NCBI GenBank assembly: GCA_050084515.1 | Contig: CM114271.1 | Location: 186,001-250,000, forward strand | DNA from: Blasia pusilla | Taxonomy: Eukaryota | Direction: 5' to 3' | Length of the DNA: 64,000 bases | Part shown: piece after piece, positions 23,690 to 51,187 of the stretch | Layout: the number at the start of each line of letters is the position of its first letter | Numbering within the stretch: position 1 is the stretch's first letter | Translations under genes and position numbers: made by a program | Notes under the pieces: model-generated | Seen by the model: the letters and a program-made list of their open reading frames with translations, nothing else | The model's database searches: none | Told to the model about the DNA's origin: nothing

Positions 23690-26600
23690 AGGCGTTCTGT
23701 CCAAGTGTTATGAAATCTGACTGAATTAAATTGCCAAGTATTCTAAGTTGATGACGAGAACGTACACGAGAAAGCATAACATAAAGTAGTCCAGGAGCAA
23801 ACACAAACTTTATAACTACAAAGCACTTGCTAGAAACTGTCAGCCCCGACTTTTGTGTGCTGTGATAGCGTAACCAAGAGTCAAGGGGAATTTTTTTTTA
23901 AAAACTTCTTTCCAAAAGTATAGTTGATAGTAGAAAAGCTTGTCATAGTAATGTTAAGTAGTTCACCTGATGTTGAAATTCTTACGGTGATAGAAAATAG
24001 TACATCGTGCTTATAATTTAAATGACTTACAATATCATGGGACTCATTCGCTGCCTGTGACTTTATGTCTATGTTAGACGTCAACATTACAAGACGACCA
24101 ATGGCAACAAAGAGAAGTTGATGGAAATCATCATCTTCAATCCATTGCTTGACCTCAGGCAGTGAAGATGCATATGTTGCAACGTGGACCGGTATTATAG
24201 AAGCATTTCCAAAAAATCTTTTCAAACAAAGAATGTTGTAGACATCAACATCACATCAAAATGTGCATATTATAATAGTGTCGTCCAAGATGAAATAAAT
24301 TGCGTCATTCTCACTCATAAAACATTGCTATAAGCAATGTGATATTTCATCTGGTGTGGATAACCTGTTTCTAACTATATTAAGGAAAGCCAAGTATTCG
24401 CCATCATGTGTGTGTCTCATTGGTGTAGAAAGTGTAGCTTGTATAGCATTTTGTAGAAGTGGTGAAGACAAAAGATGGCATGTCTTGCACAAAGGTTGTG
24501 AGGTAAGTTTACACACTGGGGGCAATTGTGCCTTATCTCCTACTAGTATAAAAAGCTTATCTGCAAATGGTGTATGGCAATATAAGGAGGAGGATTGGTT
24601 TAGTCTCATGGATACAATTTGTAATAAACGTGGGGTGTGCATTGAGCATTCATCAATTATAATGAGTTTTGCATCCCTAAGCTTGATGGTGGCATCTGAG
24701 GTTGGGTGCATATGTGGAACTTCTCTACGTACGTATGGGGATACAGAATGCATAATGGATGGTTGTTGCATGCTTGTGTAAACATACAGCGGCAATACCT
24801 GTAGTTGCTACTAAGAGGTAATTTCTACAAAGAAAATCTCAGTATTTGCACATAATACCAATAAAGTATGATTTCCCACAACTTGGTGATCCTGTTAACA
24901 TCAAAATGCTACATTAGAGGATCTTTATCTTATGGAAGGGGATCTGCTGCTCCGAATTTAAAAGACTCAAGTCTGGTGGAGATCTGGAACCAGGTTGGAT
25001 TGGCTGATTCAATGGTAGTTTGGGATCTCGTTGACGGAGTAGGGTATGAAGATCAAGCTGAATCTGGGGTTTAAGAATTGCCAAGGCCTTAGATAGTATT
25101 TCAGCAGTATGGACTTTGCTCCACAAATTGGCATTTGCATGGGATGTTATCAAGGTCTCTATATCAGTGACATCTGAAAAAATCTTACAAAACATGCACT
25201 CATGCAAGTATGTCCATTGATGTGAGTCAGAACTAAGAAGTAAATTCTCAGATCTGAAGGGGACATTTGGAAGAAGTTGTACATAAAAGAACTCATTCCA
25301 CTGATGAGGCGGGTGAAATTATGTAGATCTTACAAGTCTATCAGAATGAAAAATGGTATTACCTAATGCATCAATGCCTATAATGGAGTCTTGAAATTTT
25401 TTCGGAGATGTCTTGCAAATCTGGTGTGATGTCTAGAAGCGGGTAAATGTAAAAGTCTCCAGAGAGGGTGGCTTGGCACAATAGAGCTCAACGGGGTGTA
25501 TGCATGGAACTGATGAATGCTTTTGCTTAAGGAAGTTTGACGTGAAGGTGGATTGGAGTCAATATATTTTATAGATTGGGATCTAAATATAATTGGAATC
25601 TACATGGATGATAATGAAGCCTCTGTTGAAGAAACATAATGATTAAGTATGACGCCAGATACAAGTTTAAGTCTTATCTCATCCAAGTCCTAGACATCTT
25701 GTTGATTCAGTCTCGACGGTTAGTGACCTAGTTGGTTCAGATTTTAAGGCATACTTCACAAGGTAAAAAGACCAGTAAGTGTTTGCCACTCCTTGGATGT
25801 TCATGTGAGCCCCCCACAAGAGCAAGATCAAAGGATTATAGGGAATCACATTGCGGTGAGCATGCTTTGGTCTGAAATATGTCCACTGCATGGTCTTTGG
25901 GTCAATAAATGGCTCGGTGTTTAGATTTACATTAGGAGGGAAGCCTAAGCGATAGTAGTGTCGCTGCACTTGTTTTTTCCTGATAATACATACCCCTTCC
26001 TTGCATCTATGCAACTGCTTGGTAGTGACAAAGTCATGTAGTAAGGAGTCACATGAGGGATTTGATTCGTGTGAGGGATGATGAGTAGGTTTATGAGGTT
26101 GCGGAATATAAGCGCAAATTTTTGATGTAATCTCCTCAATGTCATCTTTGTGCATCCAGAATATTATGTGGCAATGCAGGCTACCTCTACCCTGCAGGTC
26201 ATACGTTATTACATAGTCCATAACCCGACCTAAAAGCTGGGGACCTGAGAATATGTACTGAGCAAGGAAAGTATGAAGCTTGGTATGAAATAGTTGAGAG
26301 AATTCAGAGGGTCCGTCACGCCAAGTAAACTTAGGATTGAACTTATGTAGAATTTCCTCAATATGGGCAATCTCAAGCCATCTTGTCGATGAAACCTCAT
26401 AAGATGTTAGTGTGAGAAAGAAATAGGGCATTCCCCATTTGTGTACCATAGCTTTAAGGTCTTTTAAGTGTTTTCTATGCGATCCGGGACTCCCAGGAAT
26501 TTGTGGGTTGAGTGAGTGTTTGGACAATTGGTGATATAAATATTCCTCACCCAGATATGGTTTCTCTTTGCGTAGTCTTTCAAGATCCTTATTGAGAATG

Positions 26601-28136
26601 AAGGAGCGAGAGGTTGAACAAAGTGAAATGGACTATCTCAACTGATACATTACAAGTGAGTAAGGCTTGAACAGGGAAAATGGGCTGAATGTATGTCTTT
26701 ATCTGAAGTGCAAGTAATCAAAGAAGGAGCGAGAACCTGGAAACAAGAAGGGAAATATTCCAATCTCTATAGTGAGTCTTCTGTCATGTGATGCGCCTAT
26801 GGAGTTTGTAAAGAAATGTTCCCTAATATTAGCTTCCTTTTTGAAGTAGAGGCAACCGTTGTAAAAAATGCATGAGGACTTTCTATTACATATAGGCAGG
26901 CAGTATGTGATGTCTTGGAGTATATTTAGCTCTAGTTGGTAGGGATTGTAAGTCATGCTATGGATAACTTGACCTTTTTCTTGGGCAGCTTTTTATGGAT
27001 GTTACCACTAATCCAGGAAGTACAACTAAACTTGCAGACGGATTGGGTAGTTCAAGAAGACATTTGTAGTCTTTCTAGAGGTCATTGATTGCAAAGTGGG
27101 TGAGAAGTACTTGCTTTAGACTATCAATAATAGCTTCAATCTTATCTCTTGATGCTGATTCCATATTCCAAGCAACAAGTGGGGAATCGATGAGTGATGC
27201 AGTGTGAGAAAAAAAAAAGTGACTAGATCACTGAAATCTTTACAAAACTTAGAGATACAAAGTGGCCTAGTTCGTCCGTACGCTCATAGAAGAGCTTCGA
27301 TGGAACCTGAAGATGCAGATAACTCGACATACGAGAATTCGCTACCGCTGCGGCTCTCGACTATTTCACTACTTGGGAAACTAGGATTATCTAACCCTAC
27401 ATTGCATCAGGGTGCCCCGCACCCGGGGCACCCTGATGCAATATAGGGTTAGATAATCCTAGTAATGCTACTCCGTAAACCACCTACGTCATATTACTAT
27501 GACTCCTTCGACGTCTAAGTCGGAACCATAAATCTAGGCTTCTCCTCATACAAGGGGGCCGATCAGATTAATGGTGTTCAGAGAAGTGGATGTTCAGAAT
27601 CCAACAATATGATTGAAGAATCCTTTGTGGAATCCATTAAATTTGTTGATAATACCAATTCTAGAGTCTACAATAGATAGTAGATGTAGATGAAATGGAT
27701 TGGGAGCTAATATGCTACGTATGTAAGCAAGAGTCATGTAGACATTTAAGCTAGTACATGGTTGATCATTGGTACAAAGATCACAGGCATAGAACTCTCC
27801 TTCCTTGGGAATAATGTACGGTGTAAGAAAACCATTACACAGAGCATAGGGAGGATAAGTGGTTGATTGTACAACGCACATTCGTGAACGTGGTGTTGAG
27901 TAAAGGACTACACCACAATACCCACAACATTGCATAGAGAGTATAAATGCATTGCAAATATCTTTCCCCTTAGATAATAAGGATTGTGCATTGGTCCAAT
28001 GGGAGCATACAAGCGTGCACTGGAGCTTTTCTTTGAGGATTTGTCGTGTACGGGCTGTTGGCCTGTGTGCTTTTAGGCGATTTTTGTGTGGTACAGTAAT
28101 TTGAGTTCTTTTGTTAGTATGAGGCCCGCAAGGCAT
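23690..28136 (-). pseudogene. Helitron Rep (HUH) / PIF1-like helicase, multiple stops and frameshifts, interrupted by a solo LTR
   Basis: Rep motifs GMPYFFLTLT, YDLQGRGSLHCHIIFW and YLVKYALK (25679-26527). Helicase motifs LTGSPSCGKSY and VATTGIAA (~24790-24900), LIIIDECSM, LVGDKAQLPPV, MRH..D.EYLAFLNIVR, and YAITAHK...FAPGLLYVMLSRV (~23760-23875). Cys-rich N-terminus at 27607-28136. Confidence 0.9.
27203..27606 (-). mobile_element. Solo LTR of the same Copia family as 43986-44432, inverted orientation
   Basis: Reverse complement is nearly collinear with 43986-44432 (TGTTGGATTCT...TTTTCTCACA). The flanks TGCAG and ATATG do not form a TSD. Confidence 0.9.
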
Positions 28137-28821
28137 GTTTCAATTTTTGAAAAAAATGGCGAGAGAGATAGACTGACATAGAGCTTGAGAGGGAGAGAGT
28201 AGTAGGGTGAGAGACAGAGAGATACAAATGGTGAGAGGTACACAAAGGAAGGAAAAAGGTAATGAACAGAAATAAGAGAAAATAAGGCGGTAGAGAGAGT
28301 TGAATAAACTTGATGAATTTAAAAAAAGTGAGAGAAATACATTGAGGGAGAGAGTGAGAGGAGGTGCGGTAAGAGGAGAGGAAGAGAGGAAGAGAGGAGA
28401 GAGGAAGCGAGGAGAGAGGAGAGAGGAAGCGAGGAGAGAAGAGAGAGGAAACTACCTTCAACCGAAAGAGATACTTTTTTTTGAAGAGAGTTTCCTTTGA
28501 TTTTAAGAGATTTTCCGTTGGGTTGAAGAGAGGAAACTTTTTGTGTGAATTTTTTTGCATTTTTTTGCTCAGTTATTAAGCAGTCCCACAGTTTTTTTTT
28601 CCTCTTCCATATTTTGGCAACCCATCTGAGTTCGACGAGTTGCAAATTGCACAAAATTTAGAAAACTGAAAAATCAGTGGAATCATAAGTGTGGAACCAA
28701 TCACTTTTTCCATCCAAGGTCCGGAAAAAATCTATCATTTGCCCTGGGCTGAATAGAGTTCAAGCTCAAAGTGAAGGTTCTGGAAAAATGAAAGTACAAT
28801 CTAAAACCTCATTTTGCATCC

Positions 28822-31800
28822 TCAAAGTGGTTTGTTTAAAATACTTGGCACTTTTTTGAGGGGCAGAATTGGTTGGTGGATTCCTACTCCTACCTCTGAC
28901 TCTCTTAAAACTACCAGTAACACATAGTACATATGCTTACAAGGGAAATACCTTTTGCCACTTGTCTCTCTTTGAACAAAGTCATCACATGAACATGTGG
29001 GAAAGCAACAGATGTGCACCACATACACCCCTGTGACACTTGAATTTACAGTGTTGTTCCTGACCCAATACATCCTTGCTATTCCATTCCCACTCTGGAC
29101 ATCTTTCGTGGCGATGATCTCCATTTTTGCTACCCGAGCTGATGCAATTCGCTTTGCTCTCTCCACCGTTGGCCTACATATTCTGTTTCTCTTCACCCCA
29201 TTTCTAGACTCAAACAGAAATAGTGGATTGAGATCATCCACCTTCTCCAGATACATGTTGACATCAATCTTGGGTTGAATACGAAATGCAAAGGTCTCTG
29301 TAATGCGAACATGCTCTAAACTTCCTCCTTCTATAAGTCTGAAACCAGCACTTGTAAGATTGTCCACTTCTTCTTGAGTGCAATTCGTACCTGCGGCGAT
29401 GGGCCAAATCATGGGGGTATTCCCCGGAGCTCCAATGGCAGCGGGATAAGACTTCCGGAAAGCGCAAGATTCATTTGGGCAAAAGAAGTACTTCAATTGA
29501 TCCCTGGAAATGTGAAACGATCAAAGGTTTTGATTCCCCAAAACCCAGGCAGTGGTCGTCCAGTCCTTGTACAGTTCTTATTTAGGAAAGTGCCGCATGC
29601 TCTCCTAATGCCATCAGATCCTGCCCTGCAAGTGGGTCCACGTCCGGGGTTGCTCTGAAATATATGCCAGCGTTTCAGGTTGCAATCCACCTCAATGACC
29701 GGAATCCCATATTGTTGAACCACCCCAGCGACCGGATGTTGCGAACTTCCAACAACGGAGGGCTTTTGAAATAAAAAATTCACTGATTTTGGAGAAGTTA
29801 CTCCATCACGGATCTGGGAGTAGTCCGGGATCCCCAAATACCTAGACAGCGTAGTTTCCTCATCCAAATCAATCACCGGATTCCTTCCTTGATGATGCCT
29901 CTTCACCTGCCTGAAGTCAAGATACTTATCTGGTCTTCACGAGTCTCGCTCGGACTGCTCTACCTCCATCTGTATGGGACGTCTGGAATCGCGCCCATGA
30001 ATTTCCCCACCAATGTTTACGTCTTGCTCAAGGGGAGTTCGTGGTACGCACCGGTTGAAGGCTTCCACATAGAGTTTTTCATCATTAGATCTCACAGCCG
30101 CCCTGACATAGAGCTCGTAGATCAAAGGCCCCCTTCCTTTTGTTATGCCTTTTGTGAGGAAGATATGGGATGTTGCAGATTGTAGCATTGCTCTTGCCTG
30201 GTCTTGTTGGCATGCTTCCACAAGTGAAATTCTTTGGCAAGCTTGTGACAACCTCCAGGAGGAATGAACACTTTCTGCTCCACTTGTGTTGGGGCAGAGG
30301 GCATTTTCATGAATGTTCAATCCCTGCAACGACGACAATGTGAGAAGGGAACAAAAATAGCTCAGAAGTCAAAGAAATAAGCTACCTGTCGGAACCACAT
30401 GGGTTGCAAGGCCGAGGCATCCCATGAACGACTCTGCGACCCGTCGGGTCTCGACGTGTTACAACACCCAGGAACCACCTATTGCAACCCGTCCTATTCC
30501 GACGGGTTGCAAGAACCTTTGGCCACTCTGGGCTGGAAGATCCAAGTGCAAGTCATCCGAAACCCATCTGGGTCAAACTGTTTCCAGGCCTTGTATACAT
30601 GCAACTTGCATACTTGTATATGAGTTGCACCAAAATTCTTGATGCAACCCGTCGGTTTCCGACTGGTTGCACACTCAGAAAACCCGTCCGTTTCTGACGG
30701 GTTGCACACTTGGGCAACCAGTCTGTTTCCGATGGGTTGCACATTCAGATAACCTGTCGCATCCGAAAAGTTTCTTGGTTTCTTCGGTTTGAAATCCCTA
30801 TAGTGTCCACACTTCTCAACTTGAGCTGCAACTTTTCCAACAATTCTCTGCGTGAGCTTGACAAGACGAAATAGTGAACTCACATGCCGTATGAAGTTTC
30901 CCCATTGTCTCATACGTACAGTCCACCAACTCAGCCAAGAGCACAATTCTTTGTACTTCCCCTTAATCGCATGCTTCCTCCACCACCCATGAAGTTCTTC
31001 TTGGCATTCCATGGTCCGTTTCAAGATTTTGCTGTCCTTACATCGTTGGAGTAGAGTGACATGCTCTGTCCTCTTATTCTCCTTGATGCAAGATTTGGTG
31101 TAACGGGTCACAGACTGTTGCCAATGGAAAGCATCCGACCTTTCCCTCTCCGGTTGAAACTCTCCACCCCAGAACACTTCCCTGATAGCAATCCACCCAG
31201 GTTGTGCATTGTCCGCCATGAACCCATAAATTTCCGGAGATAGCCTTTTGTTTTCCTTCACCACCTCCAATAAGAGTAACCAACACATCTTCAAACTGCC
31301 AACGTCTTCTGCTTTTACTTCACAGACAAATATAGTTTTGAGTCCCTTCTCCACATGGTCATAAACGTGAGCACCCATTGTCAACCATCCGTTCAGCACT
31401 CTGTAGCAAATATCAAAGCTTACCTAGCTGCCCTAAAAATCCTCCCCTTCCCTCATTCGATCTATAAGATCGAGGCCATTCGACGGACCTGTCGTTGATA
31501 TTTTGAAGATATAGACCCTGGATCCTTCACCTCCCTGGCCCATGAACTGCCATCTCTGAATGAATGGAAATATGGAGTTGGCCTTGATTCTGGAAATGGC
31601 ATCCATTTCGGCCATCTTTCCATCCAATACCCGTATTTGATGCAGCAAATTCCGGAAGCATTCAGGATCAACGAGCAATGTGAGATTTTCCCAAAGTTGT
31701 TTCTCCTCAGCAGCTGTGATCTCGCCCTGTCCAGGGATTCCAAGCAATTGTTCAAAAATTTGTGATGTTGTTGTGAGCTTGATCACTCCGGGCTTTGAAC

Positions 31801-32896
31801 CCGGAGAGTTTCTGTAGACCTCGGCCACTTTCTTCGCCACATCCTCCTTGATGTGTCTCTGAATTGCATCGGTCACAGGATGAGTGTGGGAGCCAACATG
31901 AACTGCCAACCTTGTGTACTCTGACGTGGAGCCCAAGTCGTGGACAATGAAAAATATGTTTGCAGGACACGCTCCAACGCAGAAAGGGGATGCCTGACAA
32001 TGAGGACATCGATGGCCTCCTGGCGGTATGGTGGCACCGACCTCATATGGAGTTTCTGCATTCTTGGGGGGGAATTTCGATGTATTGACCCGCCCGTTGC
32101 GCTCTAGATACGGGCATGCTGGATTTCTACACTCTAAGGCTCCAACGCATTGGCGGCGGGAGACAATCCAAGGACCATCTAGAATTGAAGCACTAGTCCG
32201 TTGAAGCTTGCACCATCGATGACAATCAGACTTTCTGTCCATACCCTTCAAGCGTCCTCCATCTTTCTTTTGAGCAAGAACAGCAAGTGGAGGCAACTCA
32301 AAAATGCAATTTCCATCGTACGTGGGCGGCAGCTCGTTGACAAGAATGTGCTTGAACATTTTCAAGGCTAGAGACGATAGCAAACTATTGCCTGATACTT
32401 GCAAGAGTAACGAGTAGGCGGACAGAGGGCCCGGTTGGTGTCCGATAGATCCATTGAGGCTGACGACATCCAAAATGTCTTCAGGAAGTACAACATTGTT
32501 ACGAGCGTGTGAAGTTGGAGTCGATGCCGAATCTATTGAGGTAGGAGTTGCAAACGCAGAGCTCGGTGCACTAGGAAATTCTTGACCATCTACTTGGGAA
32601 ACGGAGGAATTCAGATGCAAGCTGTAAACCCTGTAGTGACCATTTGCTAGAGGTAGGAGATTCCCTACTTTACGGCCTGCAATCACTGGCTGGACTATCT
32701 CACCTATTATGTCCTCCATACCGTCCATCCTAACATCCTTGGATACAAAGATGGTTCCAATTTGGAGAAGAAATCGAACTGAGAGAAAATTTTCATCCAC
32801 TGGTATGAAAGACTCACGAGCTTGCGGCCGAACGATTTCTGATTGAGGAAGGGTCGCTAGATGACTACCATAAGTGAGCTTCACATAATTCTCCAT
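28822..32896 (-). pseudogene. MULE-type DDE transposase with N-terminal GCM-like Zn domain and C-terminal SWIM Zn finger; 2 exons (intron 30324-30883); nonsense and frameshift lesions
   Basis: 31433-32896 and 30494-31399 share one frame, broken by two TAGs (DF*GS*VSFDICYRV). Catalytic candidates are SFD (31412-14), FMAD (~31212), DAFHW (MULE C/DxxH) and, after the phase-0 GTGAGT...TTGCAG intron, PNTSGAESVHSSW. SWIM: CSCDDF...PCKHMYYV. GCM-like: RRQCVGALECRNPACP...CPHC...C...GSHTHP. Confidence 0.85.
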
Positions 32897-32972
32897 TTCC
32901 GAAAGATTCCACTGGGAGGAGACTGAGAATAAGAATGAGGATAAAAATGGGAATGGGAATGAGAATGTTTAA

Positions 32973-32978
32973 TTTATA
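32973..32978 (-). promoter_or_regulatory. Candidate TATA box of the transposase gene
   Basis: TATAAA on the minus strand ~80 bp upstream of ATG 32896. Confidence 0.35.
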
Positions 32979-33399
32979 GTGAATAGGGACTCAGATTCTC
33001 CTAACAGAATATGACTGACAAGATGAAGTTTGGTACGTGAGATTGTCTGACATGATGGATTCAATTCTGTTGCAACTTGTCGGAGTCCGATGGGTTCTAG
33101 AATTTGGGAATCAGAGACGTGGGTTGGGAAGCACCCAATTCTAATTTTTTTTCCGTGTCCCAATACAAGTTGGAACCCGTCAAAGTCCATTGGGTTGGTA
33201 TCTGCTTCTTGCCGACCAATGGTCTTTTGAGTTGATTTTGCTAGCATCAAACACGAGACATCGCTTGCATTTGCTAAGGCAACCAATCGTTGGGGACTTT
33301 TGCAGGATTGTCCAACTCAGGGTAAATCTTGTGACCCGTCGGATTGCTAAGGGTTGCCTCGGAACTATGCATTGTCGCATTGTTACCCGAGGGATAGAA

Positions 33400-33880
33400 A
33401 AGCGTGCAACTTGTCGCTAATCGACGGGTTGCCCTGGTACCTCACCTATTACCCCAAGATAAGGGAAGCGTGCAATCTGTCGGATTCGGATGGGTTGCGC
33501 AAGTGCCTCACCTTGTAACGCTTACATGAAGGAAGCGTGCGACCCGTCGGCCTCCAACGAGTTGCGCGAGTGCCCCGCCTTCTTGCCTGAAGACGGCGGA
33601 GGCGCGCAACCCGTCGGCCTCAGACGGGTTGCGCAAGTGCCTCGCCTTGTAACGCTTACATAAAGGAAGCGTGCAACCCGTCGGCCTCCGACGAGTTGCG
33701 CGGGTGCCCCGCCTTGTTATCCCAAGACCCGTGCAACGCACCGGTCTCTGACGGGTTGCGCGGGTACCTCGCGTTGTTGCCCGAGGACGGCGGAGGCGGG
33801 AAACCTGTTGGTCTCCGATGTGTTTCCAAGATGGACGGATGCTTGGAACCCGCGGGAAGCGTGCAACCTGTCGGAGCCTT
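33400..33880. repeat. Array of palindromic repeats (~67-bp period) in the divergent intergenic region
   Basis: gcgtgcaacccgtcggcctc(c/a)gacg(g/a)gttgcgc units at ~33405, 33470, 33539, 33605, 33673, 33732 and further on. Confidence 0.8.
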
Positions 33881-33977
33881 CATGTTAGTGGTTTTCACGT
33901 CCAGACTTCCATAACGACCAACACGTCGCCGTCGGAACGACGATGCAACCCAACGGTCAGCCCAACGGCTCGAAAAG

Positions 33978-33985
33978 TATAAATA
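33978..33985 (+). promoter_or_regulatory. Candidate TATA box of the cargo gene
   Basis: TATAAATA ~240 bp upstream of ATG 34224, just downstream of the palindrome array. Confidence 0.4.
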
Positions 33986-35437
33986 GGCGAGGGTTCGCTC
34001 ATTTCCGGTTTTTCATTTCGCGAACTTAATTGCTCTTTTGCGCAGCTGCTGACCAGATACCAAGGGGCGCTTTACACGGCGACTCACCGCGAGACGATTC
34101 GAGCAAAAGATCGCGAGACGATTTAAGCGACTCATCAAGGTGACTCCTCAAGGCGACTCATCAAGGCGACTCATCGTGCACAGAAAGCAATTTCCTTGTC
34201 CATAGGAGGCATTTTCGGGAACAATGACAAGTAAAAAAACTCAAGCAAGCAAGGCTGGGAGCTTCACTCCCAAGTCCGGGACTCCTGCGTCACCATCTCC
34301 AGGGCCTCGTTCGGCCAATGAGATAAGGCATCAAGAGATCAAGGAGCGTGAAAGGGAAGCGGATATGCACAGGCAGGAGCTTCTTGCAAAATGTATTGAG
34401 GAGGCGCTCGAAAAACAGAACGCAGAGGCTGAGGCATCGCAGGCCTTGAAGAAAAGGATTGCCGAGGAAAAGCGTGAAAAGAAGCTTATGGACTCGTCGG
34501 TGAGGAGAGGAGAATTGGAAAAAGCTCAAAGGGAAAAAGCGATTGCGATTGAAGAAAGCCCGCCCATCCAACCGAAAGTGTTGAGATGCAAGAAATGTCC
34601 CTGATGAAGTCCGGGGACACAATCAATATAGCGGAAATGGCCGAAGTTCAAGTGACGGACGATGAGGCCATGAGGGCCACCAGCGTGGAGATGGTGGATA
34701 TCGCTGAAGAGTCAGGAGAGCGGTCTTCCTCGTCTCTTAGCCCGGCGGAAGAAATCGACCTCTATCGGACCGATGAGTTTCCAGTGGACTTGCGAGCTGC
34801 TGTCCCAGAGCAGTTGTCAGGCCAAGACACCAACCCAATCTTCGAGCGAGTAAGATACAATCTTTGTTCTTTGAGTTATGTGAAGGCCCATCTTGCAATT
34901 CATTGGCAATTGAGTGTAGTTTATTGACCTTGTCCCCGTTGTGATAGGTGGTAAAGCAATTGGCACTGATGGAGGGCCAGAACGCCCCGAGAATTCCACT
35001 TTTCCGATTCCGCACAATGGAGTACGTCTGCGAAATTCAATCTGACAAGAATATTGCAAAGTTGAAACAATCGGCAGCGACAATATCCTACGTCGACAAC
35101 TTCCCTCCGTTCTATGTTCAGCCTTACGATGAACATGGAACCCAAGCGCTGGTTACGGAGGAGGACTTGGAGGCGCTCGACACATTCGGGAGGATGAGAG
35201 AACAGGAATTCAGAAGGGCGATTGAGGGGACGGAATTCAGGTGGATGCAGAACCTGTATTTCTTCATATGGGATGAAAACCACAAGTTCATGGCGTGGAC
35301 CCACTTTGCAGAGGAGCGCCCAAACTCATTGGAGGCGCATTTTTGCGTAAAGGCAGTCGTGCTACATCCATACCCTCATCACATGGCGACGGTGGAGATG
35401 GCCATGCATGCCATGAACACTTAAGTTTCCTCTTGCT

Positions 35438-35980
35438 GCAAACCATCGGACTCGAACAAGTTGTTTGACTGCCGCTATTTTTTGGATGTTTTTGGTCGAA
35501 AGCAACTCGTCGGAGTTTGACGAGTTGCTCGATTGGCCGTTGTTTTAGGAAGGTTTTGGCCGAAAGAAACTCGTCAGAGTCCGACGAGTTGCTCGACTGG
35601 CCACTGTTTTAGGATGTTTTTGGCCGAAAGCAACTCGTCGGACTCTGACGAGATGCTTGACTGGCCGCTGTTTTAGGATTTTTTTGGCCGAAAGCAACTC
35701 GTGGGAGTCCGACGAGTTGTTCGACTGGATGCTGTTTTAGGATGTTTTTTTCCGAATGCAACTCGTCGGAGTCTGACGAGTTGCTCGACTGGCTGATGTT
35801 TTAGGATGTTTCTGGCCGAAAGCAACTTGTCGGAGTCCGACGAGTTGCTTGACCAGCCGCTGTATTAGGATGTTTTTGGCCGAAAGCAACTCGTCGGAGT
35901 CCGACGAGTTGCTCGACTAGCCGCTGTTTTAAGGGCGTTTTTGGCCGATAGCAACTCGTCGGAGTCCGAAAAGTTGCATT
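35438..35980. repeat. Intronic minisatellite: 9 x 64-bp units, each with the palindrome GCAACTCGTCGGAGTCCGACGAGTTGC
   Basis: Palindrome starts at 35438, 35502, 35566, 35630, 35694, 35758, 35822, 35886 and 35951. The linkers are near-identical (tcgactggccgctgttttaggatgtttttggccgaaa). Confidence 0.9.
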
Positions 35981-36684
35981 CGCAGGCACGGGAAGGTGAT
36001 CGGAGTAGGGGAGCTTGATTTTTGGCGTCAAATTGCAGCTTTAATTGAAATTGCGCAACCTGTCGGACTCCGACACGTTGATATGTTCACTTTTTTCGTG
36101 GAGACCACTCTCAAAATACAAATTATCTGACAACCCGTCGGAGTCCGACAGGTTGAAACCAGGCAATCACAAATCTGAATGCAATCCGCCGAACTCCGAT
36201 GGGTTGCAAAATTTAGCTTGTAGCTACCATTCCGACCATGAGCTGTGACGACCTGTCAAAGTCCGACGGGTCGCAAGAACCCATGTAGCTTGCAAAATTT
36301 CTTATATTGAGTTTGGATGTGCAGGATTGCATCCGAGGGGAATGTCACCCACCATTGGATCCAAGATTGCGTGAAGAAAGTGCCAACGACGCACCCGACA
36401 TAGTACAAGGGGTTCTTGGGCGACGCCCTTGTAAATGAGATGCTGGCAAAGGGGGCTCAAATAAAAAAAAAGACTTGGGCAAATAATTTTATTTCCCAAG
36501 ATGCAGCCATGACAATCCTTTGCTAGTCGAAGATACAGGCCACCAAGAAGAGCGCTTGATTGGAGCTGGAGCGGTGTCGTGTCGAGAATCTTTCTTCGAG
36601 CAAGGGCGGGCCTTCTAGCTGCGGTAGATGCGGTCGATGCAAGGTGAACTCTCTAATAAGTTCTCCTTTTCCAATACAAAATTA

Positions 36685-37716
36685 TGATGTACACTCTCCA
36701 TTCTCTCACGATAGGTATCACAAATGGAAGTGCCGAGGCGATCACTTCTTTGTAACATCGGACCCCGAAATTCCTAACTATAAAATCCCTATAAACTATT
36801 TTACGTTTGTACACGAGGAAGATAGCACAACTAGTGTTAAAACCTACTTGACCAGGCCTATTGACATCCATGGATCGCTATATAAGGACATACAAAGTAC
36901 AATCCCATGTCCTTCCATATGTGACGATAGGAAGAATCACCGGAGTTGGAGATTGCATGACCTGGTTCATGAACGCCTCCCCAAAGTAATAAACTAAATA
37001 GCAAGTGAACCAGTGCCTATCTACAAAGAGTACCTTGACATGGTAAGGATTGAGGAAAGGAAAGTCGGGCACAGCTCGTGCTCCACCCCTATCCATGCTT
37101 GACACACATTCTCTACTCTCCTCAAGAATGGGTTTTGGCGGAGTTATTCTCCCAAGAGGGGTAATCCACTCTCATTGGGGAAGTAACAAGCCAAAACTTC
37201 CGCTATTTTAGTATGACTAAACTCCTCTACGGTGACAAACCTCTCATCCCCACACACACACACCACATTCCAGAAATCTCTCAAAGAATAGACCATAGTC
37301 AAGTTACTCTCCCAAGAGGGGTGATCCACTCTCATTGGAAGAGCAAGCAATCCCAAAGCCATACACTCAAGAGAGACACGAGAGACTCAAGATGTGGAAT
37401 AGAAGGTGATGAACCCTTGAAGGTCCCTCCTCTTTATATACTCACAAGGATCCACAAGAGTATTTTAAATAGAACTTATCTTATCTTGTGCCACATGGCT
37501 TCCTCTCAAGGCTTAGCCAATCACATTTTGACACAAGTAGATTTCCTCTTATCTCTTCCAAAATATCCTCTTTTACCCACTTGATATTTTCCAAATTACC
37601 CCAACTAACCTAGCCACCAACCAAGACTACTTTTCCTTTTCATTAAAACAACTACTTTACTTTTATAAAATCATCTTTTATTTATTACCTCCTTTTCCTA
37701 AAGTTGGGCCCGCATA
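36685..37716. mobile_element. LTR-like insertion (probable solo LTR) inside the cargo gene; same family as 1710-3900
   Basis: Homologous to both halves of the repeat at 1710-3900 and separates coding blocks 36325-36643 and ~37810 onward. Exact ends and TSD uncertain. Confidence 0.6.
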
Positions 37717-40344
37717 AAAGAGGCACCACAAAAAGGTTTAAACATAAGAATCTCCTTTTTCTAAGCCAATTTACTTAATACTAATGAAACTCTATCTAAC
37801 ACTTAATGACGAAGGAGTTTACACACTGGTTGATTTTACTATACGACAGCGGAGGGAGAAAGTGTCTGTGTCTGAGCATGCTAAGTTCATCCAAGCTGTA
37901 GTATCTACAACTATGAAGTACACTGCAAGCAAGATCCAGCGCTACATCGCCATTCTCAACCTTGAACTTGGCCCTGATTTCTACAAGGAGTTGAAGGCGA
38001 TAATCAAGCGCCAGCGGAAGAGGGATGAAGATCCGCAGGGTTGGATTGGGAAGAAAGTGTCTCTCGATCGCGTCCATCGATTTGCCTTGTCTGGAATTTT
38101 GGAATTTAGGAGAATCCCACTAATGAAAATCATTCTCGAGGGCACAGAGGCCCAAAAGAGGGCGGCACACCATCCTCCGGGTGTCTCTCATCGAGTGATC
38201 TCCCATTGGCTCCGTGAATGGTCATTCTGGGACACGTTGCGGCTTCTCGGAAAGTCCATGCTCGTGGGTCTCCAAGCGGAGTTGAAAAGAATAGAGCCAG
38301 TTCCGGAGGAAGCAAACCTAGAGAGTGCTGAAGATTTTGAACTTTGGCTGGATGACATGCGGGACAAGCCCATAAAAAACCCAGGCTTTAGGACGATCTT
38401 CAAGGATCGCATCCTCCCTCAGGCAGACCTTGATGAAGAAATAGAGGCGAAGAAAAGGGATTTTGCAAAGAAAAAGCGAGATCTTCAGGAGCAGGCAGCC
38501 GATGCATCTCGACTAAGAGCTTCCCCACGCATGGTGTTCAGGTACCTCGTCCATTGTAAGAATGCAGGTACATGGCAAAAAATACCGGCATCTTGCAAAT
38601 TGTGGGCTTCTCCGCCTGATGGAGAGAAATTTTTCATGTACAACATGGAGATGGCTCAAAGCATGTCCGATTGGGAGGTGCTCGATCTGGCTGGACTGCA
38701 ACGACCCTGAGGACATAACCGAGAAAAATCTATGCCTGCTCTATGATGCAGTGGCCGCAAGTAGGGACGACATCCCCAATTTGGTGCAGCCTGAAGACTT
38801 TTTCGAAGGAGATGCGCAGGAGCAAGCCCTCGAGACAGCGGAGTTGGTGTCAGTTCCCAAGCATCGACACCCGCCATCGACAAATTGACAACGCTGGGAT
38901 GGAAGCTTCAACGAAATGGGCACGCTCCCTAGACGGTCCATGGGGAGGTCGAGGAGGTGGCGGTGGATCTCCTCGTCGCTGATTAGCCCTCGGGATTGCG
39001 CTTGTGGGACGAGAATCCGCCCGACGGTGTCCCAAACTGGAATGTCCCTCTTTCTTATGACCAGATCGCGCTCCTATTTTCCTTTGCAGACGCTTATCTC
39101 AGTGACATGGGCTGTTTCTTGGTTTTGATTGGAGGGAGCGAGGACGAGCTCTTCAACCTACAGTGCGTCAAGAGGTCACTAAAGTGGAGGACGGCGCAAT
39201 CGTGGGTCATCAAGAACGAGTACCCACTCTGATCCGCGACAAGTCAAATCCGAGTAAGGGCTCTAAATCCATATCCAAATTGTCTTGCTCTGACGGGTTG
39301 CATCTCTACATGCAACCCGTCGAATTTTCTGAGCTGGAGACTTTGGTGGTGCAATCCGTCTGAAAGCGACGGGTTGCAAATTTACCGCAAGTCTCCATTG
39401 GGTGAATGCAATCCGTCGGAACCCGACGGGTTCCAAGTGCTTATGCTTTTTCCTTGTGTTTATGGAATGATACAACCCGTCTGAAAGCGACGGATTGCTG
39501 TTAGCCAACCATGGGCTGCTCTAAGCCAACAACCTCTTGCCTTCCGACGGGTTGCTCACGGCAAAAAAAATCACTAACACTTGTAAAACAACCCGTCGGA
39601 CTCCGACAGGTTGTTCCAATGTTAAGACTATAACTAAGTTCTCTGGGGTTAATCGAAGTTCTTTGGGAACGAGTTGCACGTTGTGTCACCATTCTAATAG
39701 TATGCCTTTCTTGTTGTTGCATATTGAAATTAGCTCTTTCCTGTCCCTGACATTTTTTCCAACCTGCTTCTTTACAGATGGACCACTTCTTTGTCTACTG
39801 TTTTGTAAGGCCCGAGCTGAACTTCCAAGTGTTTCAGATCCTCGATCTAGTGGATCCATGCTCCAATGGGTACAACTTAGATAGTTTATACAATTCCCCC
39901 CCGGGAATTTACATGCAAGACGGTACCCTCTTACTTGGAGGAAGGGAAAAGTCACCAGCCCTGATGCAAACGCTCATCGAGCTCTGCTCAAGGCCGGGTG
40001 ACTTGGTGTTCGACTTAGTGGGCCTTTCAGGGGCGAATATCAGAGGCGCTTGGCAGAGTGGCAGGAACATTCTTTGCCTTGAGGGAAGGCAGGAAATATT
40101 TGACCTTTGCAAAGAGGCAAAGGCAGATTACGACACGCTAGTTGGGGCGTACAACTCTCCTCTGAAACCGAGAGCTCCGGTTCCAGACTCACCATTGGTA
40201 ATGACACCATCGTCACTTCCCACGATTCCAAAAATCGAGAGGGCAAGACCGACAGTAATTCTGGAAGAGCTCTCGGACGATGACATGTGAGTTCAAAGAA
40301 CTCAAGGACCCAGCTTGACTGCAGCGTTTTGGAGTGGGGATTCA

Positions 40345-41450
40345 TTTGATGACGAGGCAGAAGAATTCATAGACTATATCAAATGTACACTTCCGAGCTC
40401 CCTTTGGATGTAATAAAGCACAAGCGTTTTTTGAACGATGATGGTGTTTGTAAAAGTTTGTTGAATATTTTTTTTGGTCTTGTCGATTGTGATCGTCTAT
40501 GTACTCCGACAGTTTATTTTGCAACCCGTCAGATTCCCACGGGTTGCAACTTTCCACTTTTTGACCACTACACCTTTTTAACCACTTCCAGGCAACGTGT
40601 CGGATTCCGACAGGTTGGCTGCATGAGTGACCAGACTCTTTCCCTGTTAGTCCAACTTTAGAGGCATTGTGGCAGGCTTCTTCACTTTGCCTCCTTCCCC
40701 TAGTATCGTCAAACAAGTCGTAGGCTTCTTCTCTTCTCTAAGACGTGTTGGATTCCTACTATCTGTCGGATTGCCATGATGGTGTTTCCAAGGACGGAGC
40801 ACATATTGATATTGGATGGGTGTCACCTTGCAGAACGTACAAGATATACTGTCGAGGAAGGCGATGGGACTCAAATCAGGTTACATGGGACCGTTATGGT
40901 GTACCTAGGGGGGGGGGGGCAAGGATCTCGAATTCGCCAACATTTTCAATCCCCGTCTACAATCGGCCAGAGGAGCCACTTGTATCCCAGGACATTATTT
41001 TTGTACAGGAACCTAGGAGTTTTAGGAGTAAATTTGTAGATGACGAGGCTGAAGAAATCATAGAGTAGATCAAATGTACATTTCCGAGCTTTCTTCGGAT
41101 GTAATAAAGGACAAGATTTTTTCAAACGATAATGGTGTTTGTAAAAGTCTGTTGAATACTTTTTTTGGACTTGTCGATTGTGTTCCTCTACCTACTCAGA
41201 ATGTTTATTTTGCAACCTGTCTAATTCCGACGGGTTGCAACTTTTTAACCATTTCCAAGCAAGCTGTCGGATTCTGACAGCTTGGCTGCTTGAGTGATCG
41301 GACTCTTTCCCTGTGAGACCAACTTCTGAGGCATTGTGGCAGGCTTCTTCACTTTTGGCTCGTTCCCCTAGATTCGTCAAACCAGTTGTAGGCTTCTTTT
41401 CTTGTCTAAGACGTGCAGGATTCCTACTACCTGTCGAATTGCCATTTCGG
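40345..41450 (+). repeat. Imperfect direct repeat (~430 bp; ~40345-40775 and ~41038-41450) covering the 3' end/UTR of the cargo gene
   Basis: 'gatgacgaggc.gaagaa.tcataga....atcaaatgtaca.ttccgagct...ggattcctacta.ctgtcg.attgccat' is present twice. Confidence 0.85.
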
Positions 41451-42433
41451 ATTCCCAACCTCTTGGATTTTCGTGGGTGCAGGGTGGAATGGAATCACTT
41501 CTGTGGAATGTGAACCACTACCTACTCTCTTCTAAAGATTTCATGAATTTGAAAGCAAACAAAAATTTCAAATAGGTCAACAAGTTTTGAAGAGAGGAGG
41601 TGGATTTGGCCCTTTTTTTGAAAGAGAGACTCTCCTCTCTTCCTCTCTCTTTCCACAATACCAGCCCCCGAGTGAGAGGAAGAGAGTAGAAGAGGGAGAG
41701 ACACACAGTTATAAAAAAGGGGAGAAATGCAGAGATGAAGAAATAAGATTGCTGAAAGCATGGAGAATGGATATTTGCTCGCTTTGTGTTTAACCTGAGT
41801 TAGCCACTAGATTGGTATTTACTCCAGATTGGAGCTATGAAGAACCGTGGGGACAAATAGACTTGCACCTCACACAAGAGAGCATCTGAAATACCAAGGA
41901 GTGTAATATGAATTTGTATTGGTTATGACTGGATGTTAGCTTTGTACCATACCCAACTTTGGCATGTGGTGTTCGAGAAATGTTCCAAGTTTCTGGTATA
42001 GCTCATAGTGTATTGGAGGAGGGCGTCTGGTTCGGATCAAGGCAATGGTCTAGGGACCAATAGAGTCTAAAGACAATTTTAATTGGCTCTAAAATTGGAG
42101 TCTCATTCTTGTAGAATTAGAGACTAAGTTTCTAGGATGATGGAAATTATGGAGCAAGAACTACATTAATTGAGGTGCTTCTATTCATCAATAAGGAACG
42201 TAGGTGGATAAAGCTATGGGTTTATGCAAGATTGTCAACGAGAGCTTTGGAGTTTGACAGAGTCACGGGGGGTGTAGGCACTTGAACGAGTTATTGAGAG
42301 ATTTAGAGGATGAAGCTAAAAGCATTGAGCAGTGTGCGGATGCAGTTAGGGGAAGAAAACAGAGAGGAAGTACATAAGGAGCTTGGAGACATAAGAAATC
42401 GGAGAGGGATATTCTTAGAGAGGAATTCAAATG

Positions 42434-42577
<144 letters not shown>

Positions 42578-44504: not shown

Positions 44505-47500
44505 ATGGCTACTTCTTCGTCAGTTCGTGCTCGCCCTCCTCCGCTGGGTGAAGGGAAGTTAGATGGGTCTAACTATACGTTGTGGAAGTTCAAAATGAGA
44601 AATGTTCTCGAATCATTTGAGATCTGGGAAACGGCCACAGGGGTCGATTCAAATCCACAAGCTAGTTTGAGTTCTGCCTGCTCATCTTCATTTGGGGATA
44701 TCGATCCTGTTGTATTGTTGGCATGGAGACGCAGAAACGCTGATGCTCTATATGCAATTGTCACGAATGTAACTGATTCTGCATGACTCTCATTCAACAT
44801 ACAACCACTACTGCTGAGGCGTGGAACATTTTGAAGAATCAGTATGAAACGAGGAATGAGACTCGGATTCAGAATCTGGAGAATCAGCTTACGTCCGAGA
44901 AATTTTGAGAAGGAGAAAGCGCGGAGCAATTTTTGACAAGGATCAAGAATCTTCAAGATCAGATGGCGTCCGTAGGAATTTCAAAGTCTAGCGAAGATTT
45001 TGCACGTCAGTGCATAAGGATTTTTCCTCCAAGGTATGATAGTTTGGTCACTACACTGAATACTCAAGTAAGACCCACGCCGCTTACTTTTGAACAATTT
45101 AGTGCAATGTTGGTAGAAGAGGAAATGCGCTTCAAAGCAAGAGAGGGAAGTGATGCAGCATTTACTACCAACGTACAGAGAGGTAGAAATCACGATAACA
45201 GTTCAAATGTCAAGAATAAATTTCCACGAAAAGCCTTCAAATGCTTTTATTGTGATAAGCTAGGTCATCTTATCAAAGATTGTAGAAAGAGGAGTCAGGA
45301 TGAGAAGAACGGTTGTTTAAGATCTAAGAAGGAGTCTGGAAATTCTGTAGAACTGGGAGAACATGAAGTAGATGCTTGGGTAGCAATAGAAGAGTTTTGC
45401 ACACAGGCAGAACATTCCACTAAGACAAAGAGTGAAGATGCATGGGTGCTCGATAGTGAAGCATCTAGGCATATGACCAATCATAATGATTGGTATAGCT
45501 CCTTACAGCCTCTACAGGAGCCCATCGTTGTTACTGTTGGGAATAATGCAAAGTGCCCTGTAGAAGGGAAAGGCACAATTTCTTTAGTCTCACAAAAAGG
45601 AGATGAAAAGAAGTTAAGCTGATGTCTTTATGACGTACCCGAGTTGAAGCGAAATTTGATTTCAAGCAGTATTATGTGATCGTGACCTAGAAGTTCGTTT
45701 CAAGAAAACTGGAGCAGTCATTGAGGATGCCAATGGGAAAGTAGTGAGTGAAGGTATACGACGTGGAAATATCTACGAGTTGTATGCTTTCACGATAAGT
45801 GTAGGTACAGATCTTAGTAGCAGTAAGTTGTGGCATGAAAGATTTGGTCACCTAAGCTTTCCCTTACTAAGTCAGATGCAGAAATCTGGCATGGTTGCTG
45901 ATTTACCAACAATTTTTGGAGTGTCGGATACTTGTGAAGCTTGTATGATGGGCAAGCAACACCGACAACCATTTCCACAAGAGTCCAGCAATAGGGCAAA
46001 GGCTCCTCTAGAGTTGATACATGCTGACCTTTGTGGTAAAATGAGAACAGTGGCATTAGGTGGTTCTTCCTACTTCTTTTTAGTTGTCGACGATTATAAT
46101 AGGAAGATGTGGGTGTGTTTCCTTTGTGATAAGGCAAGTGCTTTTAGAAAATTTAAAGTATGGCACAAGCTGGTTGAGAATGAGACAGGAAAGAAGGTAC
46201 AAAAGCTTCGCACCAATCAAGGAGGAGAATTCTTATCAACAGAATTCAACAAATATTTGGGAGAGCATGGAATCAAGCGACAGTTAACCACGGCACATAC
46301 ACCACAACAAAATGGAGTTGTTGAGCGTCAAAACCGTACAGTGGTGGAGATGGCAAGATGTATGATGAAAGCAAAAGGTTTGACAGAAGGATTTTGGGCT
46401 GAAGTTGTTAATACTGCCGTATACATTCTAAATAGAAGTGCTACCAAGTCAGTGCAAGGCATAACTCCTCATTAATCATACTCAGGTAAGGTACCATCAG
46501 TCCAACATTTCAGGACTTTTGGTAGTGAGTGTTTTGTACATATTCTTGAAGCATCGAGGACCAAGTTGGAGTCCAAGAGCAGGAAGTGCATCTTTATGGG
46601 ATACAGTGATGAGTCTAAAGCTTATCGCCTTTGGTGTCCTGAGGAAAAGAAGATGCTTGTGAGTCGTGATGTGGTGTTCCAAGAACAGCCTCGTCAAGTG
46701 GCGGATATCAGTGGTCCGTCCACATTATCATCAAATGAAGAGATAACCCACCAGAGCACACCACAAATGTTTACACCAGATCATCAAGAAGAAGAATTTG
46801 GTGATGATTACAAAGAGCAACCTGCTCTTCCACTACGGTCATCATACCCTAAGTGGATAAAGCAGCTCTTGGATGGTAAAGATCCACCAGCAACTGATGA
46901 AGTTGTTACACATCCAAGGAGATCCAAGAGACTAGAGGAGCAGAATAGAGCTTCCGCACATCTCGTCAATATGGCCCTGATGACAGAGGTCTTGAAGGTG
47001 GAAGAGCCATCATGCTTGGATGAGGCCCTGGCTCATCCTCAATGGAGAGAGGCCATGCAGATGGAGATGGACGCTATTCAGAGAAATAAAACTTGGACTT
47101 TGGTTGAAAAGCCAAAGGACAGGAAGATAATACGCACCAAGTGGGTGTACAAGACCAAGTACAAGTCGGACAGTACATTGGATAAATTCAAAGCGAGGTT
47201 GGTTGCACAAGGATGCTCATAAATCGAAGGTTTTGACAACTATGAGACTTTTGCTCCCACTGCAAGGATGACAACCATTCGAATTGTTCTAGCGGTTGCA
47301 GGAACAAGACGTTGGCATGTATACCAATACGATGTGAAGTCTGTTTTTCTGAACGGGAGTCTCAAGGAGGAGGTATATGTTTCTCAACCACCAGGTTTTG
47401 AGACACCCGGATCAGAAGAGAAAGTTTGTTTACTTCATCGAGCATTGTATGGGTTGAAGCAAGCCCCAAGGGTATGGTATTAACGAATAGATACATTCTT

Positions 47501-50848: not shown

Positions 50849-51187
50849 GACATTTCGCTGCGCCGGATTACCACTACGCAATCCGACCCGATCACCTCCT
50901 TTCTCCTCCACGTCCGTCTATAGTCCGCGTCTCTCTCTCTCTCTCTCGAACTGCCCGAGGCTCCGGGCAGAGTAACGGAGACTTCGACGAACTTCACGCC
51001 ACCGTAACCAGCCATCCACCTCTCCGCTTTACGGGCGAGGGAGGATTCGAACTTCCAGTTCCTGCTACCTCAAAGTAGCTGTTGCTCGCCGTAACGACTT
51101 CTATTCTTAGCTGCCTCCACCGTATCCCATGCTCCATCCTATTCCTAGACCGGGGCCTCTAGAATCTAAATCAGTGTGGGTCCCACA

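Follow-up and report, generated by a model that had tools for sequence, protein, structure and literature searches.

Plant Mutator-like elements (MULEs) carry helper genes, among them mudrB, VANB/VANC and genes for Ulp1-like proteases, which decide how the elements escape silencing. The locus considered here lies in a 64,000-nucleotide stretch of Blasia pusilla DNA (GenBank assembly GCA_050084515.1, contig CM114271.1, positions 186,001 to 250,000 of the forward strand; this whole stretch is called the window, and coordinates are counted from its first letter). We favour reading its interval ~28,361-41,669, without regarding the matter as settled, as one decayed copy of a cut-and-paste transposon, divergent and of Mutator-like (MULE) type, in which a transposase gene and an accessory gene with a methylase-like C-terminus share a 27-bp palindrome. 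The closest described arrangement is that of VANDAL21, whose VANC21 protein removes silencing and binds a short motif that has built up, partly via tandem repeats, in introns and in the non-coding DNA between genes and at the ends (PMC5735166). As in VANDAL21 with its VANA, VANB and VANC genes, a transposase (here with a DDE-like core) is accompanied by an intron-containing accessory gene, there is a candidate 9-11-bp target duplication, and an element-specific motif occupies non-coding regions, partly as tandem arrays (here of 64 and 67 bp, with 38 motif copies at the locus). The motif here is a 27-bp perfect dyad, whereas that of VANDAL21 is a 9-nt asymmetric word in one orientation. In being methylase-like, and possibly also ParB-like, the accessory protein would differ from VANC, mudrB and Ulp1 as these are described.

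ParB-N6/N4 methylase fusions are found mainly in phages according to a 2025 survey of ParB (PMC12704722), and ParB-helix-turn-helix (HTH)-fused methylases are recorded by Iyer et al. only from some chlorophytes and chytrids, with few N6A methylases in land plants (PMC4738411). The resemblance to phage and plasmid fusions of a ParB-CTPase fold with an N6_N4 methylase is one of order, a possibly ParB-like N-terminal region being followed by a C-terminal beta-class methylase-like domain (PMC12704722, PMC4738411), and the motif I region can be aligned with that of phage adenine methylases. In contrast to those fusions, the present gene is eukaryotic and intron-containing, has about 1,200 codons with an insertion of about 600 residues between the two ends, has a possibly ParB-like region in which profiles see no ParB and a non-canonical catalytic motif, and is carried by a eukaryotic DDE transposon. 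In Marchantia, MpDN4MT1a/b are host beta-class N4-cytosine (4mC) DNA methyltransferases with a TSPPY motif and proven activity (10.1101/2021.02.12.428880). They are pertinent as a prokaryote-type beta-class amino-methylase fold in the liverwort lineage; unlike these host genes, the accessory family is multicopy and has D[L/M]P[T/S] at the position expected for such a motif.

Two further comparisons involve mobile elements. DUF3723 is a conserved accessory gene of the fungal Starship giant transposons (10.1101/2021.12.13.472469). It shares with the present gene the status of accessory gene of a DNA transposon, and in a protein language-model search it supplies the nearest clusters to part of a Riccia relative, which is a lead only; the two differ in that HMMER similarity is absent (PF12520 in 0 of 21 family members) and in that Starships are fungal and moved by a tyrosine recombinase. 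Retrotransposons carrying DNA methyltransferases of DNMT or Dam type have also been described (PMC5890265; 10.64898/2026.05.21.726589) and are similarly mobile elements with a prokaryote-like DNA-modification domain, whereas the present case is a DNA transposon whose domain is beta-class-like and probably inactive. A literature search for ParB, Mutator-like and methyltransferase in combination found no relevant paper (Repbase and Dfam being outside its scope), and one for a Mutator-like transposase with a methyltransferase in liverworts found nothing on point. The genome descriptor for the liverwort Riccia, a source of relatives dealt with below, is without mention of Mutator elements. A Mutator-like element with a methylase-like accessory gene and a lattice of dyad motifs was found described nowhere in the literature searched.

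Two genes, one palindrome and candidate ends

The transposase gene starts at an ATG at 32896-32894 (-) and the accessory gene at an ATG at 34224-34226 (+), and therefore the two diverge from a spacer of 1,327 bp. Within the spacer the TATA-box pattern TATAWAW occurs exactly twice, once per strand and each time on the side of the gene that it would serve (32972-32978 on the minus strand, 33978-33984 on the plus strand). Other features are collected in the table.

What ties the two genes together is the palindrome. When sought as GCAACCCGTC-N7-GACGGGTTGC it yields 26 matches at up to three mismatches, all within 28617-41238, and none in 100 shuffles; at up to five mismatches there are 38 copies, all in 28617-41285, with none in the other 51 kb of the window. 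Taken together the 38 give the consensus GCAACCCGTCGGA-N-TCCGACGGGTTGC, which has perfect dyad symmetry (13+1+13), and 83% of arm cells are paired, compared with 26-41% when the partner column is slid. Homology-supported exons contain none of the 38, which are confined to non-coding DNA: apart from those in the 3' flank and an intron of the transposase gene and in the spacer, 12 are in one intron of the accessory gene (eight of them in a 64-bp array), others are in its last intron and four are in its 3' flank, inside a duplicated 430-bp block. In the 64-bp array the arms read GCAACTCGTC / GACGAGTTGC, a compensated change (C6>T with G22>A; pair 6-22, UA in 8 cells). Tandem duplication has probably multiplied one original event here, and the change accordingly counts as no more than mild evidence for maintained dyad symmetry. 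No RNA family of Rfam was found over 27500-42500.

The ends were sought as 8-12-bp direct repeats whose inner neighbours are inverted copies. The search led to GAGTGAGAGGA, present on both sides as an exact direct repeat, and would give the element a length of 13.3 kb. As reverse complements the inner 60 bases of the two ends have a local score of 45. Paired in any of the three other orientations they reach only 25-35, and among 187 controls, in which one end was set against DNA from elsewhere in the window, the highest score was 28. A blastn search for long terminal inverted repeats returned only palindromes and GA-rich matches. A target-site duplication (TSD) of 9-11 bp with GA-rich inverted ends of ~45 bp is probable, and not certain, because the sequence is of low complexity and one copy is seen. 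The right flank beyond the element is again GA-rich, as is the left, as would be expected had the element inserted in a tract rich in GA. At 42436-42574, ~0.8 kb to the right of the element, there is a long (GA)n microsatellite, which together with the GA-rich flanks suggests such a tract as the site. GC content is 0.43-0.50 across 28-42 kb and 0.26-0.45 in the rest of the window (2-kb windows).

A preliminary description of this DNA, made from its letters, had put both genes in one mobile element at 28600-41500, facing away from a spacer of ~1.3 kb with TATA candidates and accompanied by a 27-bp palindrome in spacer, introns and both flanks. This account holds well, the palindrome being confined to the element and the candidate TSD and inverted ends lying around both genes, with the modification that the candidate ends (~28361 and ~41669) are slightly farther out. 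The 8-11-bp TSDs and shared termini that it named as something to look for have a candidate counterpart in the window copy, of 9-11 bp and with inverted ends, in a single copy and of low complexity. A contrary explanation would be chance proximity of two unrelated things, a gene for a Mutator-like transposase and a repeated gene from a host family or another transposon. Examination of just one locus, the low complexity of the candidate ends and the character of the region as a transposon graveyard, with a Helitron and a Copia element as neighbours, are in its favour; that both genes have the same 27-bp dyad in their introns and flanks, with no copy elsewhere in the 64 kb, and that the candidate TSD and inverted ends enclose both, makes it very improbable.

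Features of the candidate element and its two genes (window coordinates)
Feature	Position	Strand	Remarks
Candidate TSD, left copy	28352-28362		GAGTGAGAGGA, exact direct repeat of 41670-41680; 9-11 bp usable
Candidate left terminal inverted repeat	28361-28405	+	GA-rich, ~45 bp, imperfect
Palindrome, first copy	28617-28643		transposase gene 3' flank (1 copy)
Transposase gene (pseudogene)	28822-32896	-	multi-exon; Cys/His-rich module at the N-terminus, then a DDE-like core, with a SWIM-like finger at the C-terminus
Transposase open reading frames (ORFs)	31433-32968, 30494-31423, 29937-30368, 28822-29520	-	stop-to-stop frames
Palindromes in transposase intron	30381-30740		7 copies, downstream of the conserved ...WGNFIR exon end; relatives' ORFs all stop there
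Transposase stops	31435-31433, 31426-31424	-	two in-frame TAG
Divergent promoter spacer	32897-34223		1,327 bp; two TATA boxes; of nine palindrome copies, six or seven fall in the 67-bp tandem array at 33397-33824
Accessory gene (pseudogene)	34224-40290	+	at least 6 exon segments; stop TGA 40288-40290; tblastn with Riccia proteins P0024, P0009, P0012, P0004, P0020
Accessory-gene ORFs	34206-34604, 34948-35424, 37748-38710, 38987-39232, 39751-40290	+	open frames
Segment 1	34224-~34600	+	N-terminal low-complexity exon
Segment 2	34987-35418	+	WDENHK region; tblastn 32% identity, E 1e-15
64-bp tandem array	35415-35995		~9 units, accessory-gene intron, one palindrome per unit
Segment 3	36326-36556	+	tblastn alignment 36326-36580, 26% identity with P0012, E 8e-4 in a small search space
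Accessory-gene stops	36401-36403, 36524-36526	+	in-frame TAG within alignment to Riccia SHATVQYDWIQ... region
Segment 4	~37800-38700	+	tblastn alignment 37928-38680
Segment 5	38918-39229	+	motif-IV-equivalent; tblastn alignment 38918-39256, 34% identity, E 8e-17 with P0004
Accessory-gene stops	38930-38932, 38984-38986	+	in-frame TAG; second inside motif-IV-equivalent
Palindromes in last accessory-gene intron	39275-39614		6 copies
Segment 6	39793-40287	+	motif I exon; tblastn alignment 39793-40194
Duplicated 3' block	40348-41445		~430 bp, 40348-40777 and 41039-41445, 86-88% identical, non-coding, two palindrome copies each
Candidate right terminal inverted repeat	41626-41669	-	CT-rich on + strand
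Candidate TSD, right copy	41670-41680		GAGTGAGAGGA, directly outside inverted end

The transposase

Its 309-residue frame has three relatives at 48-49% identity, and a profile of these three raised the number to ten (six from Logan, three from ENA assemblies and one from Calypogeia fissa; E down to 0). With residues 118-656 of one of them, P0001, tblastn aligns 32425-30839 at 38% identity (E 1e-116). The N-terminal module has nine invariant Cys and three invariant His among the ten relatives. In the alignments the core reads VSFD..., then FMADNA and, after 26 residues, DAFH[W/F], and the exon end ...WGN[F/Y]IR is common to the relatives. At the C-terminal side the SWIM family PF04434 is matched with E 0.015 at 15.3 bits, below its cut-off of 19.6, and CxC-x14-CxH is present in the sequence.

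The pattern of the Mutator superfamily is a second catalytic Asp followed by C/DxxH, with a zinc-finger DNA-binding module upstream. The transposase is called Mutator-like because its DAFH would correspond to the second Asp with C/DxxH and because MULE clusters are its nearest named ones in the language-model search (0.94, 0.93 and 0.93, the ten best named hits all being of that family). On these grounds it probably belongs to the Mutator superfamily, in a lineage that, judged by its sequences, is divergent and unseen by curated MULE profiles. Of the GCM-DDE-SWIM transposase proposed in the preliminary description there remain the Cys/His module, the D..D..DAFH core and the SWIM signature; 'GCM' and 'DDE' are unconfirmed by profile, and SWIM is sub-threshold.

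The profile returned nothing useful from PDB sequences, the best match (E 0.32) having a ferredoxin-like Cys pattern. An invariant C-x2-C-x5-C-x3-C-P-A in the N-terminal module of the relatives (P0001-P0003 and P0028-P0034; window 32100-31900) likewise shows a weak ferredoxin-like 4Fe-4S pattern in NCBIfam (E 0.017-0.5). It might form a zinc module or, with lower probability, hold an iron-sulfur cluster.

The accessory gene and its protein

At least six exon segments of the plus-strand gene have homology to Riccia proteins behind them, in keeping with the five or more exons at first ascribed to it. A search of 1.84 billion proteins with its 320-residue exon gave 18 representatives at E<=1e-3, of which the best had E 2e-9 and none reached 1e-10. 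Origin was looked up for 17 of the 18 (all but P0021), and 15 of the 17 are hypothetical proteins of the liverwort Riccia sorocarpa, located on 7 different sequences, with one ENA assembly and one Logan entry besides. One cluster has four further Riccia members, including the full-length P0024 (1,207 residues), which brings the total to at least 19 Riccia sorocarpa gene models; in Riccia the family is accordingly multicopy. A search of the motif I exon against longer proteins gave no match, and NCBIfam on six window ORFs gave chance-level rows only.

The C-terminus resembles phage and plasmid N6/N4 DNA methylases in several comparisons, much as the early suggestion of a beta-class methyltransferase would have it. 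The last exon matches positions 165-220 of 221 of Pfam PF01555 (N6_N4_Mtase) with E 1.8e-4 at 22.0 bits, and the best family member, P0022, does so with E 9.4e-6 at 26.2 bits, the gathering threshold of 26.7 being reached by neither. DNA-methylase families of PHROG are matched by the window (E 2.3e-5 and 3.4e-5) and by Riccia P0025 (E 2.4e-7, PHROG 3008). With hhalign, the alignment to a Streptococcus phage Javan597 adenine methylase has a probability of 92.9% (E 3.6e-7, 57 columns) and falls on residues 190-246 of 249, i.e. the C-terminus, and that to a Synechococcus phage methylase reaches 45.6% only. Weak tblastn matches were obtained in 48 phage records, with the 25 listed all under methylase, hypothetical or unannotated features, and in 42 plasmid records, with 39 of the 40 listed under methylase genes. 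A family profile matches DpnA (E 0.03) and M.RsrI (E 1), and P0025 alone gave nothing useful against PDB sequences. The S-adenosylmethionine (SAM)-binding motif I, D-x-F-x-G-x-G, is intact as DFAGGWG in Riccia and reads DLVGLSG in the window, with one glycine replaced. The beta-class arrangement, in which motif I comes last, is supported by these matches, with only ~55 residues detected.

Beta-class amino-methylases have their catalytic motif IV, (D/N/S)PP(Y/F/W), upstream of motif I. The corresponding position is taken here to be D[L/M]P[T/S], placed by spacing and by the usual layout of the class and not by tool alignment; it is without the second proline and the aromatic residue of motif IV. 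In the window this stretch reads VDLLVAD*PSGL, i.e. AD-TAG-PS. Since D[L/M]P[T/S] is not DPPY, the domain is more likely to bind SAM or DNA than to methylate bases, and from its sequence would more likely be a pseudo-enzyme than an active base methylase. DNA methylation by the accessory protein, which had been entertained at the outset, is weakened by D[L/M]P[T/S] in the family, by D-stop-P-S in the window and by the state of both window genes, which are pseudogenes.

In the N-terminal half, Riccia proteins carry KFSTWDGNHR, where the window copy has WDENHK, and we take DGNHR to recall the DGxHR signature of the ParB/Srx fold. With residues 165-420 of P0024, the counterpart of window 34987-38700, the language-model search found fungal DUF3723 clusters nearest, at 0.96 (12 of 30 hits, with 186 and 174 shared features), followed by clusters of ParB_N at 0.91, which made up 10 of the 30. 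Weak fold matches on the ParB side serve as leads only. In the AlphaFold model of P0008 the DGNHR region is followed by a helical domain, residues 331-555, with a pLDDT (predicted local distance difference test) of 85-94. Foldseek of this model against PDB and BFVD gave no match at E<=0.001, and the AlphaFold model of the window's WDENHK exon has a pLDDT of 40.1. PHROGs and NCBIfam contained no ParB-type match, the best E of an N-terminal family profile against PDB sequences was 0.9, tblastn of P0011 (DGNHR region and helical domain) against phages gave no match, and PF02195 was not found in the two phage records where it was sought. A literature search found no paper with both 'DUF3723' and 'ParB'.

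A number of results weigh against the reading of this locus as a Mutator-like element with a ParB- and methylase-like helper. For the N-terminal part, Pfam on 21 family members detects neither ParB_N (PF02195) nor DUF3723 (PF12520), nor is either in the window ORFs; hhalign of the family with a plasmid ParB, which itself matches PF02195 at E 2.6e-6, gives a probability of 0.05%; and the DGNHR region of the P0008 model has a pLDDT below 62. The ParB domain of the preliminary description is consequently not demonstrated, and a ParB-like reading of the N-terminal half is tentative, doubt having slightly the upper hand. On the methylase side, the ~55 residues detected are a small part of the fold, and ~150 residues upstream of motif I the expected catalytic position is non-canonical in Riccia, as LDLPT, LDMPS or MDLPT. 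On the transposase side, in contrast to the Mutator superfamily, none of 11 proteins (the window's and its ten relatives) matches the MULE/Transposase_mut profiles PF10551 and PF00872, and no Pfam family is found at E<=0.1 in the ten relatives. For the element as a whole, the candidate ends are low-complexity sequence and one visible copy means that the linkage of both genes is seen once. More weakly, the transposase profile search found no Riccia protein, though Riccia has many accessory-family genes, and this is weak evidence against obligatory linkage of the two.

State of the copy, possible action and significance

Where every relative of the transposase has, without a gap, L[E/H]G[A/T/S]WVSFD, the window copy has GEDF*GS*VSFD. 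With two in-frame TAG there and four in the accessory gene, both genes are pseudogenes, and the DGNHR and motif I glycines of the accessory gene are also altered in the window copy. It is a dead relic, unable to move or act by itself. All six in-frame stops are TAG, which accounts for 233 of 902 stop trinucleotides in the element (~3e-4 by composition), and no frameshift was seen inside homology-supported segments. Codon reassignment is not the explanation, because the residues of relatives at the sites differ (E/H, W, E/A, Y/F, F, L/M). Deamination at CAG/CTG sites, tried as a cause, received no clear support, with 23 transitions and 30 transversions in the duplicated 3' block. Neither the transposase alignment nor the palindrome pattern found a match when metagenomes were scanned. 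Among the sequencing runs listed for the stretch, 16 contain part of it, the best share being 0.28 and none reaching half, and no run listed is of RNA.

A Helitron remnant adjoins the element on the left at 24328-26632 (-), perhaps to 28139 (Helitron_like_N, E 5e-20; PIF1-like helicase, E 5e-9), and a 40-nt inverted repeat at 27380-27463, 98% complementary with a 4-nt loop, is unrelated to the 27-bp palindrome. To the right, at 44909-48259 (+), there is a Copia-type long terminal repeat (LTR) retrotransposon that retains gag, a zinc knuckle, an integrase and RVT_2. A frameshift near 45.6 kb interrupts it, as do in-frame TAA codons (at 46473, 47220 and 47481), unlike the TAG-only element; no LTR pair of at least 60 nt was found for it in 41.5-52 kb. 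The open frame at 50210-50917 (-), which encodes a BTB_2 domain (E 4e-15) of the potassium-channel-tetramerisation BTB/POZ type, probably represents an exon of a host gene.

Intact members of the family would be expected to be excised and inserted by the transposase, with a 9-11-bp duplication, and the accessory protein would then act on the element's own DNA. That protein would consist of an N-terminal DGNHR region (a ParB/DUF3723-like lead), a helical domain at the position of ParB's HTH and, beyond a long linker, a domain at the C-terminus that is like the beta-class amino-methylases. By analogy with VANC and VANDAL, the palindromes would be putative cognate sites of a dimeric DNA-binding protein encoded by the element, and the accessory protein is favoured as binder if its helical domain is a ParB-type HTH.

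An alternative is that the palindromes are bound by the transposase, through its Cys/His-rich N-terminal module, with the accessory gene a passenger, captured or decaying, as in Pack-MULEs. Mutator-type transposases do bind repeated motifs in their own elements. A 2026 preprint reports that the AtMu1 transposase activates its cognate copies in a sequence-specific manner (10.64898/2026.08.24.746577). The degenerate catalytic motif of the accessory domain, and the lack of a Riccia transposase relative in the profile search, would also fit a passenger. The accessory gene is, however, full length, with its own TATA box and introns and with the palindrome in introns and 3' flank, and its family is multicopy and dispersed in Riccia, a better fit to a transposon-borne gene than to a captured host fragment; binding by the transposase with a passenger gene is for these reasons thought unlikely, while deserving to be taken seriously.

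In the other direction, the protein might be an active DNA amino-methyltransferase that a true ParB domain guides to parS-like palindromes, so marking the element's DNA. The order of DGNHR region, helical domain and methylase-like C-terminus does mirror that of phage ParB-N6/N4 methylase fusions (PMC12704722), motif I is intact in the Riccia proteins, there are the ParB_N and ParB-HTH leads, and liverworts use a prokaryote-type beta-class methylase, MpDN4MT1 (10.1101/2021.02.12.428880). Against these stand the D[L/M]P[T/S] at the motif-IV position, as placed by spacing and the layout of the class, and the failure of every profile to detect ParB, and an active enzyme of this sort is decidedly improbable. 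A broader proposal, about equally hard to credit and perhaps a shade less so, is of a bryophyte Mutator-like family whose accessory protein would descend from phage or plasmid ParB-methylase fusions, would be kin to Starship DUF3723 and would sit as a dimer on parS-like 27-bp palindromes, protecting or marking the element's chromatin.

Were such descent and binding to palindromes true, it would be a second, independently evolved system of VANC-type sequence-specific self-recognition, and the family could have given rise, or be related, to the 4mC machinery of liverworts. If the language-model link is real, DUF3723 may itself be ParB-like and fungal and bryophyte transposons may share an accessory module; if the DUF3723 link holds, there would be a first functional handle on a conserved and unexplained Starship gene. 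The value of the dead window copy is as a pointer to its family, and it offers a testable pair in the accessory protein and the 27-bp site. In liverworts and their relatives, a lineage that already has a prokaryote-derived amino-methylase shaping its epigenome, a helper that joins a methylase-like domain of prokaryote type to a DNA-binding half perhaps akin to ParB or DUF3723, together with dense dyad sites, would be a new solution to the escape from silencing.

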